This document shows, piece after piece, positions 2,864-14,300 of a DNA stretch of 14,300 nt. The translations under genes were made by a program, and so were the position numbers. This stretch comes from a virus (taxonomy: Duplodnaviria > Heunggongvirae > Uroviricota > Caudoviricetes): the IMG/VR virus record IMGVR_UViG_2579778919_000011. The stretch is one strand, 5' to 3'. The notes beneath the pieces were generated by a model, which was not told where the DNA came from, did no database searches, and saw only the letters and a list, made by a program, of their open reading frames with translations. How positions within the stretch are numbered: the stretch's first letter is position 1; each line of letters starts with the position of its first letter.

Positions 2864-3475
2864 CTACGGAATCAGGCTAATGCCTCTGGCTGCTTTCCCC
2901 GTCTTACGCTCAATCACGCCCGTGATTCTGTCCACTACCGGGCTGAATGCCTGCCAGTAAACACTCTCATAGCGAACCAGCACCCCTACTTTTTTGTTGA
3001 ATGTATCCCAGCGCATTCCCTTCGGCTTCGGGAAGGAACAGGGATTGTTAGCTAAATTACGTGTCTGTTCGGTGTTTCCCCAGACGGCATAACGCTGACG
3101 GCGCATTTTCATTCGCATCCGGCCTAACCTGTCCTCGCTCTGGCTGGTGTAGTGAAGTTTCCAGCACGCCCGGCAGCCAATATCTTTTTTGCCAATATAC
3201 AGCTTTGCAGCCCGTTTCATACAGTGGGGGCAAACGTACCATTCCCGCACGCCATACCCGGCCTGTGTGGTTGTGGTGCGAATCGCCCGCGTCACGCCGT
3301 TGATTGTCATGGCGTAGCTGTCGGCTTGCCGGAAGGTATACAACGTTCCGCTTTCGGTCTGGGTATAAAGCTGCGTACCCGGTTCAGCATCCGCCAGCCT
3401 GCTACGCATGTGCGAAAGGAATGGCAACCCTATGCGGGGCAGGTCGGTGGTATAGCTGCGCGTTCTGTCTCTCAC
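2864..3475 (-). CDS. Hypothetical protein with C4 zinc ribbon (203 aa), GTG start
   Basis: GTG at 3473-3475 is preceded by AGGAGG at 7-nt spacing. The protein contains CPHC-N15-CRAC (CxxC...CxxC). No family confidently recognised. Confidence 0.65.
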   Translation of the reverse strand: MRDRTRSYTTDLPRIGLPFLSHMRSRLADAEPGTQLYTQTESGTLYTFRQADSYAMTINGVTRAIRTTTTQAGYGVREWYVCPHCMKRAAKLYIGKKDIGCRACWKLHYTSQSEDRLGRMRMKMRRQRYAVWGNTEQTRNLANNPCSFPKPKGMRWDTFNKKVGVLVRYESVYWQAFSPVVDRITGVIERKTGKAARGISLIP

Positions 3476-3499: not shown

Positions 3500-3715
3500 C
3501 GCATTAACTGCGAACGGTGCGCAAATTGAATACGAAATAATATGCGTATTTTACTGTAAATTGCGCACTATTTTGCGCACTGCGAACCAATGGCGCGAGC
3601 CAGAATATTTTGGACTGCCTAAATCGAATATGGCTTCCAGCCCGCTACTGGCGCGGTTCTCTCTTCATATGGGCTTTGAGTCTGTCCAGTACAGTCCAGT
3701 ATTTCAACATCGGTG
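3500..3715. repeat. Intergenic module copy A (diverged direct repeat of 4110-4315)
   Basis: The 3580-3656 core aligns to 4173-4250 at roughly 78 percent identity by hand alignment (about 17 differences over 78 positions). Both copies carry several CTGCG/TGCGCA motifs and a CTGT-N5-ACAG dyad, here at 3682-3694. Confidence 0.6.
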
Positions 3716-3728
3716 ACTATACGGATTG

Positions 3729-4106
3729 CTAACATGCGCCGTTTTTTTTAACCCTTCGCAGATCCCGCCTTGCTTGCATTGAAACGGATCTCGCTAAACT
3801 CAGCTCAAGCCGTGCGATTCTGTCGGCATGTAGCCCCATGAGTCCGTTAATCAATGTCATCTCGCGCCATTCTTCTGTTCCCGGCGTCGGATTAGTCGCC
3901 AGTAATAGCCCGTATCTCTCAGCCATCATGAGGTTTCTTGCACGATTTCGCACCAGCGGAGAAAGCGCATCTTCTCCCTCAAACGGGAAGAATACCCGCC
4001 TACTGCGTTCGCCATGTTTGACGGCATTAGTATTGCCCAACGGTGCGCCTGCGCCTTTCCGCTTGCCACCCCATCCCGATCTTGATTGTTGGCTATTTTT
4101 TTTCAT
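3729..4106 (-). CDS. Terminase small subunit-like protein (125 aa); candidate packaging-redirection factor
   Basis: ATG at 4104-4106. The N-terminus GGKRKGAGAPLGNTNAVKHG matches the G-x-G-A-P-x-G-N-x-N-A-x-K-H-G motif I associate with one class of phage small terminase subunits. The size is typical of TerS. Assignment is by motif only. Confidence 0.55.
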   Translation of the reverse strand: MKKNSQQSRSGWGGKRKGAGAPLGNTNAVKHGERSRRVFFPFEGEDALSPLVRNRARNLMMAERYGLLLATNPTPGTEEWREMTLINGLMGLHADRIARLELSLARSVSMQARRDLRRVKKNGAC

Positions 4107-4109
4107 TTA

Positions 4110-4315
4110 ACGGCTCACTGTGCGCAAAAACCCTAACTGAATGCGCGGTTTTGCTGCGTACCTGACTGCGTACTGCGTACCAGTGGCGCGAACCTGAATA
4201 TTCTGGACGGTCTAAATCACGCTCTGGCTTCCAGCCCTCTGCTGGCGCGGGTTTAGCGCTACGAGGGTTTAAAATCTGTCAAGAACAGTCTAGAATTTTA
4301 GCCTGCGTTCGGTGC
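4110..4315. repeat. Intergenic module copy B (diverged direct repeat of 3500-3715)
   Basis: See copy A. The CTGT-N5-ACAG dyad is at 4276-4288. This copy lies immediately upstream of the TerS-like gene. Confidence 0.6.
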
Positions 4316-4320
4316 GAACC

Positions 4321-4671
4321 TCACGGCACAGACGAGTACCAGTAAAAGCCTGTTAGCCCGGCATCGCAGCGCTCACGATTAAGCACGCGTGGCGGTTGCT
4401 CTCTGGTCATCAACTCCAGCGAAGCATTACCTCCCTGCGTCTCCAGGCGGTATTGCCTGTCGGTAGTGGTGATGGCATCAGGCAATAACTTTATGGCGGC
4501 CTGGCTAAAGTCTCGCGGCGCGCCGTAAAATTGCGCATCAATAATATGAACCACATCGCCGTTAATCGTTGTCCGATAACGATCTGGCTGTATTGTAAAG
4601 CCCCCACAATGGATAGCAGATAGTGCCGGTGCAGAGGAGATCAGGCAGGCTGCCAGAATGTATTGCTTCAT
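4321..4671 (-). CDS. Small exported protein (116 aa) with N-terminal signal peptide
   Basis: ATG at 4669-4671 overlaps the upstream stop (ATGA). The N-terminus MKQYILAACLISSAPALSA is n-region plus hydrophobic core plus AxA-like cleavage site. No family recognised. Confidence 0.6.
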   Translation of the reverse strand: MKQYILAACLISSAPALSAIHCGGFTIQPDRYRTTINGDVVHIIDAQFYGAPRDFSQAAIKLLPDAITTTDRQYRLETQGGNASLELMTREQPPRVLNRERCDAGLTGFYWYSSVP

Positions 4672-5309
4672 TCTTCACCCACCAATTCATCCAGTTCAGC
4701 CAGCGTCAGAGGCTTTGGTACAGGCTTGTCGATATCGCCCATAATGCGCTGGAAGTTTCTGGCGGGCATATGGTTACGGTTCTCCAGTATTTTCGCCAGC
4801 GCGATAACATCCCACCATTTCAGGGTAATCAGCGCCTGAGCGCGGGAAAGGGATATTCGCTGTATATCGGCGTCCTCCCCACCAGCTACCCGGTATACCT
4901 CGGATAAATCACGAACATTTTTCATATCTGCTTTCCCGGACGTTTCCATCAGTGCGTCAATATCATCCTCCGTATAGCGTGATTGCGCGACGATACCAGC
5001 CAGAGAGCTAACCATAGCCCGGCATACTTGGTCTATCAGACGTAATCTGGCGTCATCGTTCGAGAGGGTGTAAGACTTAACCTCAGCCACATTCCGTGGA
5101 TAGTTGGCGTGCCATACCGCGACGGCTCCACACTCATCAACATCGCCGCCAAGGTAGGTTTTTGCCACTCGGTTATTACCCGATAATGCAATTTCTACCC
5201 CCTGTATGCCGAAAAACCATGCGGCTATCGCATGACCTGCTTCGTGTATTGCGAGATGTCTGGGCCAGCGATAGCTGCCTAACTCGATAATGGTGGGTTG
5301 TGTACTCAT
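4668..5309 (-). CDS. HEAGH zinc metallopeptidase-like protein (FtsH/M41-like motif, no AAA+ module)
   Basis: The ATG at 5307-5309 (MSTQPT...) is preceded by AGAGGGAAGA and sits 10 nt after the SSB stop. The ORF-track start at 5366 would overlap SSB by 47 nt. The protein contains LAIHEAGHAIAAW, resembling the FtsH zinc-binding HEAGHA motif. Confidence 0.7.
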   Translation of the reverse strand: MSTQPTIIELGSYRWPRHLAIHEAGHAIAAWFFGIQGVEIALSGNNRVAKTYLGGDVDECGAVAVWHANYPRNVAEVKSYTLSNDDARLRLIDQVCRAMVSSLAGIVAQSRYTEDDIDALMETSGKADMKNVRDLSEVYRVAGGEDADIQRISLSRAQALITLKWWDVIALAKILENRNHMPARNFQRIMGDIDKPVPKPLTLAELDELVGEE

Positions 5310-5319
5310 ATCTTCCCTC

Positions 5320-5781
5320 TCAGAATGGATCTTCATCATCAAACGGCGGGCGCTGGTCAAAATCATCAGGGGTGTTATATAGCTCCCATCCCGGCGCGGG
5401 TTGCGTGGTATGGCCCCTGCTGGCTTCGCTTGCTTTGACTGACTCGGCCCGCTTCCCGCCGGGGCGTACCGTTCTGGCGCTGATCACGCTGTCGGCTACT
5501 ACCTGATACCCCTGCTGTGTACCGCCATCCTTGCCCGTCCACTGATTGACCTGCATCGCTCCGGCAACACTGACTAAATCGCCTTTAACGTGTCCTGCCA
5601 GTGCGTCGGCCTGTTTGCCGAATGCCACCACGCCCAGCCAGAAAGTAACCTCTCCGCCCTCTGCTGCATGGCAGGGCAGTGCCACCGCTAACCGTCCCAT
5701 TGCCATGCTTGTACCGCTTGCTGTGGTGCGGGTCTGGGGATCTGCCACCAGCCGCCCGTATGCTGATATCTGTGCTGTCAT
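5320..5781 (-). CDS. ssb: Single-stranded DNA-binding protein (153 aa)
   Basis: OB-fold-like pattern TFWLGVVAFGKQADALAGHVKGD...W...YQVV, and an acidic C-terminal tail ...PPFDDEDPF resembling the SSB DDDIPF tail. Its start overlaps the upstream stop (TAATG). Confidence 0.85.
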   Translation of the reverse strand: MTAQISAYGRLVADPQTRTTASGTSMAMGRLAVALPCHAAEGGEVTFWLGVVAFGKQADALAGHVKGDLVSVAGAMQVNQWTGKDGGTQQGYQVVADSVISARTVRPGGKRAESVKASEASRGHTTQPAPGWELYNTPDDFDQRPPFDDEDPF

Positions 5782-5966
5782 TAAGCGCCCTCCATTCTTG
5801 ATAACGTGTTGTCAATATTCCCGGCGGCTCGTTTCAGGTAGTCCATGCTGTCATTTAGCCGGGATAATTCGCCAGCCAGTAACAAGGCCGCCGCCTCCTG
5901 CGCGGTGAACCCCTGCGCTTCAATCTCTCTAATAACTTCGATCTGCTTTTTATGATGTTCGTTCAT
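5781..5966 (-). CDS. Hypothetical small protein (61 aa), first gene of the SSB operon
   Basis: The ATG at 5964-5966 (MNEHHKKQIEVIR...) has AAGGG 7 nt upstream. The ORF-track start at 5990 has a G-run directly abutting the ATG, which is poor spacing. Confidence 0.5.
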   Translation of the reverse strand: MNEHHKKQIEVIREIEAQGFTAQEAAALLLAGELSRLNDSMDYLKRAAGNIDNTLSRMEGA

Positions 5967-6019
5967 TTTTTCGCCCTTTAGCTGAATCATACCCCCCCCT
6001 GTAAATCTTTTTTGGGGTG

Positions 6020-6275
6020 TAATATCCCTACCAAACCCTACTAATCGATGAAACCCAGATATGGCGCGGCTTTCAGGCTAGTAGGGAATTGTTTTTCTTA
6101 CCCTACATAACCCTACTTATCCCTACTAAATCACTTCAACGGCATTTTACTGCCTGTTTTATTTGGTAGGGATATGTAGGGATAAGTAGGGATAAGTATA
6201 TATATCCCTACCAGTCTACAAACCCCGTCATTACTGGCCTTAAATGACTTTGTAGGGATAGGTAGGGATAAATCA
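6020..6275. repeat. Iteron array; putative island origin of replication
   Basis: Five direct GTAGGGATA copies at 6166, 6176, 6186, 6252 and 6262, the first three and last two at exact 10-bp spacing. Three inverted TATCCCTAC copies at 6023, 6118 and 6203, plus partial copies (CCCTAC at 6101 and 6111, GTAGGGAA at 6081). An AT-rich GTATATATAT lies at 6196-6205. The array is immediately 3' of the primase-helicase gene. Confidence 0.75.
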
Positions 6276-6283
6276 GGGGTAAA

Positions 6284-8728
6284 CTATTCTTCGCCCCCTT
6301 CGGCGGTGCTGCTGCCATATGCTCGCGGTATAAACTCCTCAGCCATCTCGTTATAGCCCACGTTGGTTTGCGCTCTGCCGTTAATGCTTCGCGTCAGGTA
6401 GCTGGCTCGGTACTCTTTTGCTGCTGATTTTATGGCGCGTGAAAACTTATTGACGGAAAGCGGTTTACCCAGCCCGTGATACTCCATAAACGCCAGGTAA
6501 AGATGATAAAGATACGCCCTCGGCTCTGGCTGGCCTGCCCATGTACCTCCGCCCATCATCATGCCTTTGGGTTCGTTCATGAAAAAAAGTGCCGCACACA
6601 TATCGATAACCGGATCTGTGCCGCGTTTAACGTCTAGCGCCTCCTGAGAATCGCGCTGCTCAAGTAACAGTGCCTTTGCTTTGTTCTGGTCGGAAAAGGT
6701 GGTTAGCAGGTGGCGGATAATCACCGGGATTTCTCGCCTGATTTTTGCGGTTAAATCCGGGTCTTTGTCTGCGTCTGATACCGGGTTATTAAACGGGAAT
6801 ATCACGCGGCGGCGGGCAATGCCCCCGTTTCGCTCCGTGAATGTCATCGGCTCGTTATTGGTTGCCATAACAACGGCATTTATCACGGTTGTGAACTGCT
6901 TTTCATATTTCCCATCAATCTCTACCGGATCGCCGCCCGTAATGGCTTTAATCCCCGCACCCTCTCCAACGTAGCGGGTCTGGTCAGGCATAATAATCAG
7001 GCTTTTCCCTACGAACTGCGCCCGTCCCCGTGCGGTGTCCAGCGTCATCATGCTACCGCTGGCGGTGTTGTGTTCACCTGCCAGCGTGGTTGCTATGCTG
7101 CTGAATACGGATTTCCCACTGCCGCCCTCGCCAGTTATCTCAATGAATAGCTGCCAGTCGTGACGCTTCGCCAGCACCATAAACAAGGCTGCTTTGATAC
7201 GCTCGGCCTTATGATGGTCGCCAGCCGTTGCATGATTCAGCCAACGGGTAAAATTGGGGGCGCTGGTGGAAATATTCTCCCCCGGCGCTGGCGGGGTGTA
7301 GGTGATCCCATTGTGGTTCATCAGCCAGTTACCCGGCGAATGGGCGGAAAACGTCTGCGTAGCGAGGTCATAAACGCCGTTATCAAAACCAATCAGATCC
7401 CCGCTCCGCTCACCAATTACCGGTATTTGCAGCTTCATGGTTGCGACAACCGATTTAATCCCTTTTTCGGTGTAGTGGGCTTCGTGCTCGTCGAAAATTG
7501 CCACCATAACCCTTTCTAATTCGCTGTCTGGTAGCTTCACCCATACGCCAGATTCGTAGCAGTAAACAGCGCCACTATCAGGGTTGACCGCCAACATATC
7601 CCAGCGAGATGAAAGCAACCGCGCTTTCTGGCTGGCTGCCATTTGTGCAATATCTCCGACTTCGGCTTTACGGCGGGATTTACCGCCCACAATGGCCTGT
7701 AGTTGTGGTTTCACGGCTTCCCCCTGAATCTGGTACATCGAATCGTTAAACGCAGCCGTAGCGACTTCCAGCCCGTTTTGCTGGCGGTAGTCGTCCCAGT
7801 CGGCTTTGTAGTCTGTCGGCGGCAGCGCCACCCAGCCAGCCACGGATAAGGCGGCTTTCTCTGCGGCCTCCCTGCCTGTATTGGCTTCTCCGTTTTGGTG
7901 GTGGTCGTTGTCTGCGGCGATAATAATTTGCGCCTTCGGGTGTTTCCGGCGCATTACTCCGGCAACGGGTAGCAGGTTGCCCGCGTCAATTGCTGCCACT
8001 GCCAGCGCGTCCGGGCGCATCAGGTGAACTGACAGAGCGGTAGCCAGCCCCTCGGCAATCACGACGCTTTGAGGCCGTTCCAGCGCGTTTACGGCGTAAT
8101 ATGCCCCGCGCTTTGCTGAACCTGTCAGAAGTCGCTTTTCTCCCTGCGGGGTGATGGTCTGCGCGGCTGTGACTGCGCCGGATTCATCCACCAGCTCCAG
8201 CAATAACGAACCATCGGGCATTAGCGGGTAATTGAACCCGGTCAGCCCTTTTGATTGCAGGTAATCAGATTCGCCCTGTGTGACGTTCTGGCGCATTCCG
8301 GCATACAGACGGGTAAACGTTGCCCTTCGCTGCTCTGCGTCCTCTGCTGCCTGTTGCTGGCGCTCCTGCTCACGCTGCTGGCGGTCAGCCTCCAGTTGCT
8401 CCCTTCTCTGGCTCGCTGCCGTCTGGTCGGTTTGTGCTGCCCGGTAATCAATACCCAGCACATCAGCGGCAAGGTGCGCCGCCTCCGTGGTGTCGCAGTT
8501 GTTAACCCGCTTGATTAAATCCAGCCCGTCGCCCGCGCCGCACTGATTGCAGATAAAGCTGCCGCGCCCGTTGTCGTCGAACCGGAAGCGATCCGTACCG
8601 CCACATGCAGGGCAGGGGGCATGGCGGCGTGATGAATCAGGCACGTCGATAGACAGGCCAGCCAGCACATAAGGCCAGTTACCAGCGGCGGCGGTGGTCA
8701 CTTCGCGGATAAAGTCGATATTACGCAT
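6284..8728 (-). CDS. Primase-helicase (P4 alpha-like / Pri-Rep), 814 aa
   Basis: N-terminal zinc ribbon CPACGG...CNQCG; Toprim-like motifs VVIAEGLATALS and IIIAADNDHH; Walker A GEGGSGKS in the C-terminal NTPase domain. GAGGGAG lies 7 nt upstream of the ATG at 8726-8728. Confidence 0.9.
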   Translation of the reverse strand: MRNIDFIREVTTAAAGNWPYVLAGLSIDVPDSSRRHAPCPACGGTDRFRFDDNGRGSFICNQCGAGDGLDLIKRVNNCDTTEAAHLAADVLGIDYRAAQTDQTAASQRREQLEADRQQREQERQQQAAEDAEQRRATFTRLYAGMRQNVTQGESDYLQSKGLTGFNYPLMPDGSLLLELVDESGAVTAAQTITPQGEKRLLTGSAKRGAYYAVNALERPQSVVIAEGLATALSVHLMRPDALAVAAIDAGNLLPVAGVMRRKHPKAQIIIAADNDHHQNGEANTGREAAEKAALSVAGWVALPPTDYKADWDDYRQQNGLEVATAAFNDSMYQIQGEAVKPQLQAIVGGKSRRKAEVGDIAQMAASQKARLLSSRWDMLAVNPDSGAVYCYESGVWVKLPDSELERVMVAIFDEHEAHYTEKGIKSVVATMKLQIPVIGERSGDLIGFDNGVYDLATQTFSAHSPGNWLMNHNGITYTPPAPGENISTSAPNFTRWLNHATAGDHHKAERIKAALFMVLAKRHDWQLFIEITGEGGSGKSVFSSIATTLAGEHNTASGSMMTLDTARGRAQFVGKSLIIMPDQTRYVGEGAGIKAITGGDPVEIDGKYEKQFTTVINAVVMATNNEPMTFTERNGGIARRRVIFPFNNPVSDADKDPDLTAKIRREIPVIIRHLLTTFSDQNKAKALLLEQRDSQEALDVKRGTDPVIDMCAALFFMNEPKGMMMGGGTWAGQPEPRAYLYHLYLAFMEYHGLGKPLSVNKFSRAIKSAAKEYRASYLTRSINGRAQTNVGYNEMAEEFIPRAYGSSTAEGGEE

Positions 8729-9761: not shown

Positions 9762-9800
9762 GTCACCGCCTGATGTGCAAATATCATGATTGGCGGTGAC
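9762..9800 (-). promoter_or_regulatory. Perfect 9-bp inverted repeat GTCACCGCC-N21-GGCGGTGAC upstream of the Icd-like gene
   Basis: Arms at 9762-9770 and 9792-9800. The spacer contains the palindrome ATCATGAT. It lies 28 nt upstream of the Icd-like start and could be an operator or an RNA stem-loop in the 5' leader. Confidence 0.4.
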
Positions 9801-9923
9801 GTTAGCAGGGTTTGCACTACCGGACACAAAGGAAACCGGCCTACGCGAACGTAGCCCCACTAACGCCACCATTGATACAGTACGGGTAAGTCCGCTGATT
9901 TGATGTGCGTAGTGAATGGACAC

Positions 9924-13040: not shown

Positions 13041-14300
13041 TTACTTCGCCTTTCTCAGCGGTGTAACGTTGTATTCTTCGCCGCGTTCCAGTGCCACCAG
13101 CAAGCCCGCCCACTGTGTTAACGCAGCCCGGCGTTCATCAAAGTATTGGTGGCGGTTATAGATACCCTCCACGCCTTTAATTTTGTGGTTAAGGCATCTT
13201 TCTGCGACTACCGGATCAACGCCCAGCGCGGCTAAATGGGTGCGGGCCGTGCGCCGGAAGTCGTGAATGGTGAAGTTCGGCACGTCCGGCATTTCAGCGC
13301 GAACCTTCGCCAGCGCAACGGGCAGGGTGCTTTCCTGAATATGGGGGATCATGCGGTTTTGCATCTTTCTGGCTGGCAGTACCCATGCGCTGTTGCATGA
13401 GAACGTTTTAAGCTCTCTCAGCCATTCGACGGCTGGCGGTGCTAATGGGATGTCTATAGCGTCGCCGTTTTTGCTGCGTTCCTCTGGCAAGCGCCATACG
13501 GCTTTATCAAAATCGAACTCCTCCCAGCGGGCGGCGCATAACTCCATTTTGCGGACGCATAACGCTAACAGTAATTTGAACGTGATTTCGTTCTGGCGAC
13601 TGAATCCCTTAGCCGTGCGCATGGCTTTGAATAGCTGGATTAACTCATCGCGGGTTAACCAGCGGTCACGGGCAACTTCTTTCCCTCCGGCGTCTGCCAC
13701 CTCAAAGGCTGAACATGGGTTAATCTCCAGCGCGTGCCGTTTGATTCCGTAGTCGAATATGCGGCGCGTCCATCTCAGCACGTCCGTTGCTATGGTCGGC
13801 GCTCCACGGTCAACAATACCTTTCAGCATGTCATCGATATGGCGCGGTTTCACGTCCTCTACCTTCATGCTGCCAATGCAGGGGTTTATATCTTTGTCGA
13901 TACGGCGGCGGAGTATATCGGGGTGCTTCCAGCGCGGGAGGATCTGACGCTCAAAGTATTCAGCGGCAAGCTCTGAAACGCGCATGGCGTTCTTCTCTGC
14001 TTCCATCTTCGCCAGTGCTTCGGCTTTCCGTTCCTGCTTCTCTCCCGCGACGTCATAACCCAGCGCAACACGCGCCGATAGCTCTTTGGCTGTCTCTCTG
14101 GCCTTTGATAGTGATAGCTCGGCATATGAGCCAATCAGCATGGCGCGGGGTTTCCCTGCGAATTTATAGCGGAATCGCCAGACGGGGGTCTGGTAGTTTT
14201 CGCGGTATGAAAGATAAAGCCCGTTACCGTCAGAGCGTCCCTCGAATCGCTCCCCGGCCTTTATCCATGCGCGGATCTGCATGTCTGTGAGTTTTGGCAT
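13041..14300 (-). CDS. int: Tyrosine recombinase / integrase, P4-family (419 aa)
   Basis: The N-terminus MPKLTDMQIRAWIKAGERF...DGNGLYL resembles the arm-binding domain of P4-type integrases. C-terminal catalytic residues are present: HDFRRTARTH (HxxR) and GIYNRHQY (catalytic Tyr). The ATG is the last three bases of the window, so the promoter is outside it. Confidence 0.9.
   Translation of the reverse strand: MPKLTDMQIRAWIKAGERFEGRSDGNGLYLSYRENYQTPVWRFRYKFAGKPRAMLIGSYAELSLSKARETAKELSARVALGYDVAGEKQERKAEALAKMEAEKNAMRVSELAAEYFERQILPRWKHPDILRRRIDKDINPCIGSMKVEDVKPRHIDDMLKGIVDRGAPTIATDVLRWTRRIFDYGIKRHALEINPCSAFEVADAGGKEVARDRWLTRDELIQLFKAMRTAKGFSRQNEITFKLLLALCVRKMELCAARWEEFDFDKAVWRLPEERSKNGDAIDIPLAPPAVEWLRELKTFSCNSAWVLPARKMQNRMIPHIQESTLPVALAKVRAEMPDVPNFTIHDFRRTARTHLAALGVDPVVAERCLNHKIKGVEGIYNRHQYFDERRAALTQWAGLLVALERGEEYNVTPLRKAK

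Follow-up and report, generated by a model that had tools for sequence, protein, structure and literature searches.

A rare cassette of a stand-alone M41-fold peptidase and an exported partner predicted in the cargo slot of a P4-related satellite

We scrutinized a 14,300-nucleotide (nt) stretch of enterobacterial DNA held as a virus record (IMG/VR IMGVR_UViG_2579778919_000011; "the window" denotes this whole stretch), in which four minus-strand open reading frames (ORFs) encode a small leader protein, a single-stranded DNA-binding protein (SSB), a HEAGH-type metallopeptidase (hereafter the protease) and an exported protein. A preliminary description had read the four as one operon and as a possible split version of the plasmid antirestriction protein ArdC. 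Comparison with related islands indicates instead that two units make up the string. One, consisting of the leader ORF and SSB gene, appears to be the end of a satellite replication backbone beside a putative origin; the other, which is the conserved unit, comprises the protease and its exported partner, a rare accessory cassette in the cargo slot that follows the SSB gene. We assign a probability of about 0.5 to this two-unit explanation with the cassette acting in phage, satellite, and host conflict.

Two Units in One Four-Gene String

The genes under study are as follows.

5781-5966, minus strand: leader ORF, 61 amino acids (aa), helical
5320-5781, minus strand: SSB gene, 153 aa
4668-5309, minus strand: protease gene, 213 aa
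4321-4671, minus strand: exported-protein gene, 116 aa

The leader and SSB genes meet at TAATG, SSB and protease genes are separated by a 10-nt gap (GAGGGAAGAT, Shine-Dalgarno-like), and the protease and exported-protein genes overlap at ATGA, all as first described. Since all four ORFs are annotated coding sequences in RefSeq Escherichia coli genomes, with order and spacing unchanged, and conserved homologs exist for each, they are not chance ORFs. The proposed four-gene string therefore holds as a compact, co-directional arrangement with coupled junctions, but not as a single module, as it separates into SSB backbone and protease/exported-protein cassette. A scan of positions 3600-6400 returned neither a consensus promoter on the coding strand nor an intrinsic terminator, so the transcription unit cannot be defined.

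To establish which genes travel together, 13 island types with a protease homolog were compared (L-numbers denote the compared island loci). The SSB gene lies directly upstream of the protease gene only in the window, L001-3, L007, and L008. Between the two genes are found a 331-aa helix-turn-helix (HTH) gene in L004/5, a PerC gene in L014, a ProQ-like gene in L015, and an opposite-strand HTH-M78 pair in L006, and the protease occurs without a nearby SSB gene in L009, L010-12, L017/18, L023, and L024. Identities of the two proteins are likewise decoupled, being 63% for SSB and 95% for the protease in L007, and 73% and 28%, respectively, in L015. DNA homologs of the SSB gene were present in 1,675 of 5,426 complete E. 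coli genomes (31%), and the protease with its exported partner in only 28 (0.5%), making the pair ~60 times rarer. The preliminary description had called an SSB gene beside such a peptidase unusual for a satellite; the SSB gene itself is not unusual in satellites of this kind, as shown by this frequency and by its listing in the replication module of Gram-negative phage-inducible chromosomal islands (GN-PICIs) (PMC10111431). Co-occurrence of SSB and protease in related islands, which the preliminary description had named beforehand as a condition for a joint module, is not borne out by 1,675 versus 28 genomes and by cassettes that lack the SSB gene. An apparent 341-aa "SSB-protease fusion" in L013 (6915-7940) was rejected as frameshifted read-through in which the HEAGH motif is destroyed. 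Nothing in the analysis supports functional interplay between SSB and protease.

The region after the SSB gene holds PerC, ProQ-like, or HTH-M78 genes in other islands, and perC and proQ are recognized as accessory cargo of satellites (PMC13612085). The protease cassette of the window occupies this slot.

The Protease and Its Exported Partner Are Retained, Moved, and Replaced Together

In 11 of the 13 island types, all from Enterobacterales, the gene immediately after the protease encodes an exported protein, across proteases that diverge to ~23% identity. Two partner families were found. A ~115-aa beta-barrel protein follows the protease in the window, L001-3, L006-13, and L024, usually with a 4-nt overlap of the genes. 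A ~355-aa lipoprotein, unrelated to the beta-barrel, takes this place in L004/5, L014, L017/18, and L023; these lipoproteins have lipoboxes LGAC, ISGC, or ITGC, are 37 to 53% identical to each other, and constitute an unnamed family restricted to Enterobacterales.

Replacement is clearest between Salmonella L010 (7444-8345) and E. coli L023 (6253-8059), which share the yicC site and have flanks that are 89 to 90% identical. Beside int, L010 carries a 186-aa protease with a beta-barrel partner and L023 a 223-aa protease with a lipoprotein. The whole cassette of protease and partner has been exchanged between the two backbones, which is the pattern of a diversifying cargo locus. L024 (E. coli WWCOL-256; 4869-6464) holds a recombinant cassette. 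It starts with a small ORF, after which comes a complete gene for a 223-aa "peptidase M41 family protein"; 127 aa left over from a window-type protease are next, and the 116-aa exported-protein gene is last.

The Protease Is Predicted to Be a Soluble M41-Fold Zinc Peptidase

HEAGH occupies residues 22-26 of the protease (window 5232-5246) and the putative third zinc ligand, D128, is encoded at 4926-4928. Both are conserved in the close family, which comprises 24 clusters, Enterobacterales apart from one record labeled Pseudomonas. An exhaustive profile search of 1.84 billion representatives returned only 70 proteins at E<=1e-3, nearly all of 160 to 240 aa with an N-terminal HEAGH. In a diverse alignment of 51 members, H22, E23, A24, H26, G105, and D128 were the only invariant residues; the expected zinc triad (H22, H26, and D128) is thus complete.

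Compared with the Protein Data Bank (PDB), the profile of this 51-member alignment matched the protease domains of FtsH (2di4, E=4.7e-12; 2dhr, E=1.2e-11). HEAGHA aligned with HEAGHA, D128 with the Asp of TGAENDL/F in 2di4 and 2dhr, and the last helices with one another. The assignment of D128 follows from the Asp of the FtsH TGAxND motif, which is the third zinc ligand in FtsH structures. Consistent with these matches, the predicted fold is that of the FtsH protease domain (M41), at a sequence identity to FtsH of 10 to 19%, and 26 of the 51 members matched Pfam Peptidase_M41 (PF01434) at E<=0.01 (best E=1e-13). The window protease itself scored below the PF01434 gathering threshold (12 versus 29.9 bits). 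Searched alone against PDB, Pfam, NCBIfam, PHROGs, and PADLOC, it gave motif-level or noise matches only, and hence the wider family profile was needed to recognize the link to FtsH. No AAA domain was matched in Pfam and no hydrophobic segment was found, indicating that both the ATPase module and the membrane anchor are lacking, in line with the earlier reading of an FtsH-like HEAGH protein devoid of an ATPase domain. Given the FtsH-profile matches and these two absences, the protease is best described as a soluble, stand-alone M41-fold zinc peptidase with a predicted complete catalytic set.

When genomes were scanned with the broad alignment, true FtsH genes drowned out other signals and nothing was confirmed; rescanning with the close alignment recovered only three loci. 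No match was found by tblastn in 50,697 phage and 72,556 plasmid records, and a Foldseek comparison with viral structures gave nothing significant. The sister clade is already labeled "peptidase M41 family protein" in some RefSeq genomes, while members of the window clade are "hypothetical" everywhere.

Two observations concern individual members. P0016, a homolog from Pectobacterium brasiliense, is the sole member with QEAGH in place of HEAGH, which may reflect loss of activity or an error in sequencing. Assemblies labeled Chryseobacterium sp. (L007) and Pseudomonas graminis (L003) encode proteases 95% and 71% identical to enterobacterial ones, respectively, and may be contaminated or mislabeled.

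The Exported Partner Has a Predicted Eight-Stranded Fold

The signal peptide noted earlier on the last gene is supported.

4615-4671, minus strand: signal peptide of the exported protein, residues 1-19; cleavage predicted between ALSA and IH, leaving a mature protein of 97 aa

The signal region is classical, consisting of MKQ, YILAACLISSAPAL, and the ALSA/IH junction, which in Salmonella homologs reads AYA/IQC. The protein has a predicted eight-stranded beta structure in which C22 and C102, on the first and last strands, are invariant. The MliC/PliC/ACP fold is an eight-stranded barrel with a disulfide between first and last strands, an SxSGAxY motif on loop 4, and YxxxTKG on strand 6 (PMC5507604). 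Strand 6 of the exported protein reads Y74-R-L-E-T78-Q-G80, with Y74 and G80 invariant and Q, E, or R at the Lys position. Loop 4 lacks SxSGAxY and reads FYGAPRDF, with only G50-A51 in common. None of 12 members matched a Pfam family at E<=10, and a PDB profile search gave noise only, with neither PliC nor MliC among the matches. Filing the protein under PliC/MliC was dropped on the basis of these profile searches, and a PliC-like identity is kept as a lead.

The Leader ORF and SSB Gene Probably Close the Replication Backbone

The preliminary identification of the SSB was confirmed by matches to Pfam PF00436 (E=1.1e-14; 54.7 bits, where the cut-off is 26) and PHROG 44 (E=5.6e-30). The protein consists of an OB (oligonucleotide/oligosaccharide-binding) fold, a linker, and an acidic C-terminal tip. 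In E. coli SSB the C-terminal motif is of the D-D-D-I-P-F type; the window protein ends in PPFDDEDPF, and most SSBs of related islands retain a tip, of the form DDE[TA]PF or DDTPF. During replication, SSB would coat the single-stranded DNA of the satellite, and its DDEDPF tip could plug into the host SSB-interaction network.

Upstream of the four genes lies a repeat cluster.

6022-6271, no strand assigned: iteron cluster, in the 290-nt gap from the primase stop (6284) to the start of the operon

Of 16 CCCTAC/GTAGGG hexamers in the window, 12 fall within this cluster, in both orientations and with 10-nt phasing, flanking an AT-rich core. The expectation for the whole window is 4.3, and none of 200 shuffles reached 16. 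Relatives carry other iterons in the same gap, namely GGTAGA (x11) in CFT073, GGTTCA (x11-12) in Dickeya and L017, and GTGAAC/TGAACA/GGTGAA in L015. The cluster is probably the replication origin of the satellite. The replication category of GN-PICIs groups Primase, SSB, and DUF5906 genes with mapped origins (PMC10111431), and in the CFT073 island the primase gene is followed by an iteron gap, then by a small ORF and the SSB gene, which overlap, and after these by PerC and capsid genes. We therefore infer that the leader ORF and SSB gene form the end of the replication backbone, beside the putative origin.

The leader ORF had no significant match in Pfam, PHROG, NCBIfam, or PADLOC. It is 98.6% identical in L001, but other small ORFs, unrelated to it, take its place in L002, CFT073, and L003/L006/L009/L010, giving at least four unrelated leader families across islands; it is the variable first gene of the SSB unit. 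RefSeq homologs start at an ATG at 5990, 24 nt further upstream, and are 69 aa long. A run of eight C at 5992-5999 (eight G on the coding strand) lies 2 nt upstream of this alternative ATG, where it could affect the choice of start or vary in length by slippage. A different conserved ORF of 55 to 62 aa (KPVLL...APT..IAR..L.KAL), without a Pfam family and unrelated to the window leader, precedes the SSB or protease gene in L003 (7370-7537), L006 (7820-8008), L009 (2306-2494), and L010 (7268-7444); judged by eye, it resembles a strand-helix-helix protein of the ribbon-helix-helix type.

The Window Carries a P4-Related Satellite at yicC

The window is a segment of an enterobacterial chromosome with an island of ~12.5 kb, nearly all of whose genes are on the minus strand. 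Its remaining features are as follows.

1-1746: yicG and dinD
1800-1976: copy of the yicC 3' end, 94-100% identical to empty sites in thousands of E. coli genomes
2864-3475, minus strand: island gene, 203 aa, no Pfam or PHROG family
3729-4106, minus strand: island gene, 125 aa, no Pfam or PHROG family; N-terminus glycine- and basic-rich (GGKRKGAGAPLGNTNAVKHG)
9789-9876, minus strand: C4 antisense RNA, Rfam 80.8 bits, above the gathering score
9925-10001, minus strand: isrK RNA, Rfam 73 bits, above the gathering score
9962-10014, minus strand: c4-a1b1 target RNA, Rfam 49.3 bits, above the gathering score
12946-13012, minus strand: int-alpA RNA, Rfam, above the gathering score, adjoining the integrase gene
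13041-14300: P4-type integrase gene

The yicC copy is presumably the attachment-site (att) duplication at the left boundary of the island. Two E. coli strains in RefSeq have the same architecture, at yicC or guaA/der, with the gene order integrase, hypothetical, AlpA-like HTH, hypothetical, AntA/B antirepressor, DUF4222, Icd/Ash-like, small ORFs, P4-family primase (with domains Zn-ribbon, Toprim, D5_N, and DUF5906), followed by the four genes under study. The C4, isrK, and c4-a1b1 matches lie within or beside the Icd/Ash-like gene and, together with int-alpA, point to RNA immunity of the P4 type. An integrase, an AlpA-type regulator, and a primase/helicase thus share an island in the ~10- to 15-kb range with an att duplication. 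On the integrase, AlpA-like HTH, AntA/B, Ash/Icd-like protein, primase, RNAs, and att duplication, the element, which is integrated at yicC, is identified as a P4-related, GN-PICI-type satellite. At least 80% of the island was present in only 9 of the 5,426 E. coli genomes.

No homologs of capsid, terminase, psu, delta, or sid were recognized in a scan of window proteins. The 125-aa and 203-aa genes are kept downstream of the cassette in several related islands, and their products are candidates for helper-packaging factors.

Discussion

Rarity, mobility within islands, and wholesale replacement between identical backbones are typical of conflict loci, and for this reason we favor a conflict function for the cassette. 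Occupying the cargo slot after the SSB gene, it would provide a cytoplasmic peptidase translationally coupled to a small, Sec-exported beta-barrel protein. Without an unfoldase, the peptidase would be limited to unfolded or intrinsically disordered chains and could cleave a disordered phage or host target, and the exported partner would act at the envelope, where it may inhibit a muralytic enzyme of a phage in the manner of PliC. The outcome may be superinfection exclusion, defense, or manipulation of the helper. None of the four proteins matched the PADLOC-DB 2.0 defense models at E<=1, and the literature searched held nothing on a stand-alone M41 peptidase in satellites, on an SSB-protease module, or on pairing of such peptidases with exported partners.

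A bolder version of this proposal, which we consider doubtful, is that protease and partner constitute an unrecognized two-compartment conflict system of satellites. In one form, the Sec pre-protein, unfolded in the cytoplasm, would be what the ATP-independent peptidase naturally binds or cleaves; a phage that collapses the membrane potential or blocks export would cause the precursor to accumulate, switching the peptidase on or off and leading to abortive infection or control of the helper. In another, the partner would block periplasmic phage muralytic enzymes and the peptidase would destroy a disordered phage protein within the cell. The two unrelated exported families would then represent alternative modules for sensing or effector action.

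Several observations weigh against a joint function. In L025 (E. coli E2348/69; 6674-7405), a 243-aa protease homolog is followed by an opposite-strand HTH gene without an exported partner, making this island either a counter-example occurring in nature or a cassette in decay. (Just beyond the L025 island is a gene of the reverse transcriptase family.) The exported partner is also missing in L015 and in the remote members L016 and L020. Such islands would be expected if protease and exported protein were independent cargo whose functions have nothing to do with each other, such as a "moron" for the envelope or virulence alongside a host-physiology protease, adjacent only through tight packing. 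The absence of a membrane component joining the two compartments, the other neighbors of distant family members, the two unrelated partner families that follow the protease, and the assorted cargo found after SSB in other islands are consistent with this explanation. Nonetheless, we regard it as unlikely, albeit the best placed of the alternatives, because an exported partner persists in 11 of the 13 enterobacterial island types even with protease identity as low as ~23%, the beta-barrel form retains its 4-nt overlap, and the pair is both relocated jointly to the int-adjacent position and replaced as a unit. Furthermore, a protease gene or its remnant lies upstream of every beta-barrel gene examined for context.

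Other explanations assign a role to the protease in regulation. Peptidases with HExxH motifs are common as anti-repressors of mobile elements, such as ImmA of ICEBs1 and IrrE. A regulatory protease of this kind would cleave a repressor, either that of the satellite itself or that of the helper prophage, and so cause induction. In its favor are the frequency of such anti-repressors on mobile elements (IrrE is discussed in PMC7213743), the need of a satellite to sense or manipulate its helper, and the small, possibly ribbon-helix-helix-like ORF that precedes the protease in L006, L009, L010, L023, and L024; we consider this explanation improbable.

Alternatively, the protease may mimic or modulate FtsH. 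Host FtsH controls lambda CII and CIII, and a free M41 domain could degrade substrates of this class, or could co-assemble with or titrate FtsH, biasing the lysis-lysogeny decision of the helper or envelope homeostasis of the host. This would suit the domain-level homology to the FtsH protease domain, including its C-terminal helices, and the often lambdoid helpers of such islands (PMC6739421). However, the argument is purely inferential at 10 to 19% identity to FtsH, the strictly conserved catalytic residues favor an active enzyme over a decoy, and the exported partner is left unexplained. We consider this possibility slightly less probable still.

The least probable reading, and one we consider very unlikely, is the split ArdC-like module, in which SSB and protease would protect incoming satellite DNA or act in antirestriction. 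Such a satellite would be expected to arrive from a capsid as double-stranded DNA, in contrast to the single-stranded DNA of conjugation, and neither protein is homologous to an ArdC domain. While an ssDNA-binding protein combined with a peptidase can be antirestrictive (PMC7213743), and the SSB and protease genes are 10 nt apart in the window, L001-3, L007, and L008 and within ~1 to 2 kb of each other in further islands, with SSB upstream, the SSB gene is ~60 times commoner than the protease in E. coli, protein identities are decoupled, the cassette occurs beside int or after the primase without SSB, and the only apparent fusion (L013) is a frameshift artifact.

Genes that act against phages or manipulate helpers abound in phage satellites, whose cargo slots have been a recurrent source of new systems. 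Here, a rare family of FtsH-type protease domains without unfoldase and membrane anchor is defined, a tempting analogy with ArdC is corrected, and the SSB is placed in a common replication backbone. If the pair is functional, it would represent a new kind of protease-based conflict module and a natural experiment on the FtsH protease domain without ATP.

Comparison with Known Systems

The two units resemble five sets of known systems to different degrees. Lit of prophage e14 and ImmA/IrrE are element-encoded HExxH proteases acting in conflict or regulation, and Spackle of T4 is a periplasmic superinfection-exclusion protein. They provide precedents, first, for an HExxH protease of a mobile element whose target is a protein of the host or a phage and, second, for a small periplasmic blocker of phage lysozyme; belonging to other folds and families, they are analogies only.

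Like ArdC of plasmid R388, the window combines ssDNA binding and an HExxH metallopeptidase on a mobile element. In ArdC (PMC7213743), one polypeptide joins a Rad4-BHD (beta-hairpin domain)-like domain that binds ssDNA to a gluzincin domain of the Spartan/IrrE-like type, whose third ligand is Glu, whereas the window has two genes whose linkage is not obligate, encoding an OB-fold SSB (PF00436) and an M41-fold peptidase with an Asp ligand. Hence a Rad4 BHD-like domain, a Glu-ligand gluzincin domain, and obligate linkage are all absent from the window proteins, and the proposed split ArdC is not upheld.

The progression from primase through an iteron gap to SSB is shared with the replication module of GN-PICI and P4-like elements, as grouped in PMC10111431, and the window differs from it in nothing essential, adding the protease cassette after SSB and carrying a variable leader ORF. 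The exported partner resembles the MliC/PliC/ACP proteins in its predicted eight strands, in having Cys on the first and the last of them, and in Y74xxxT78xG80 on the sixth, but it lacks the loop-4 motif and has no match to them at the sequence level. Finally, unlike FtsH, the M41-fold protease of the window has no AAA+ ATPase, transmembrane anchor, or periplasmic domain, being a soluble protein of 213 aa encoded on a satellite beside the gene of an exported protein.

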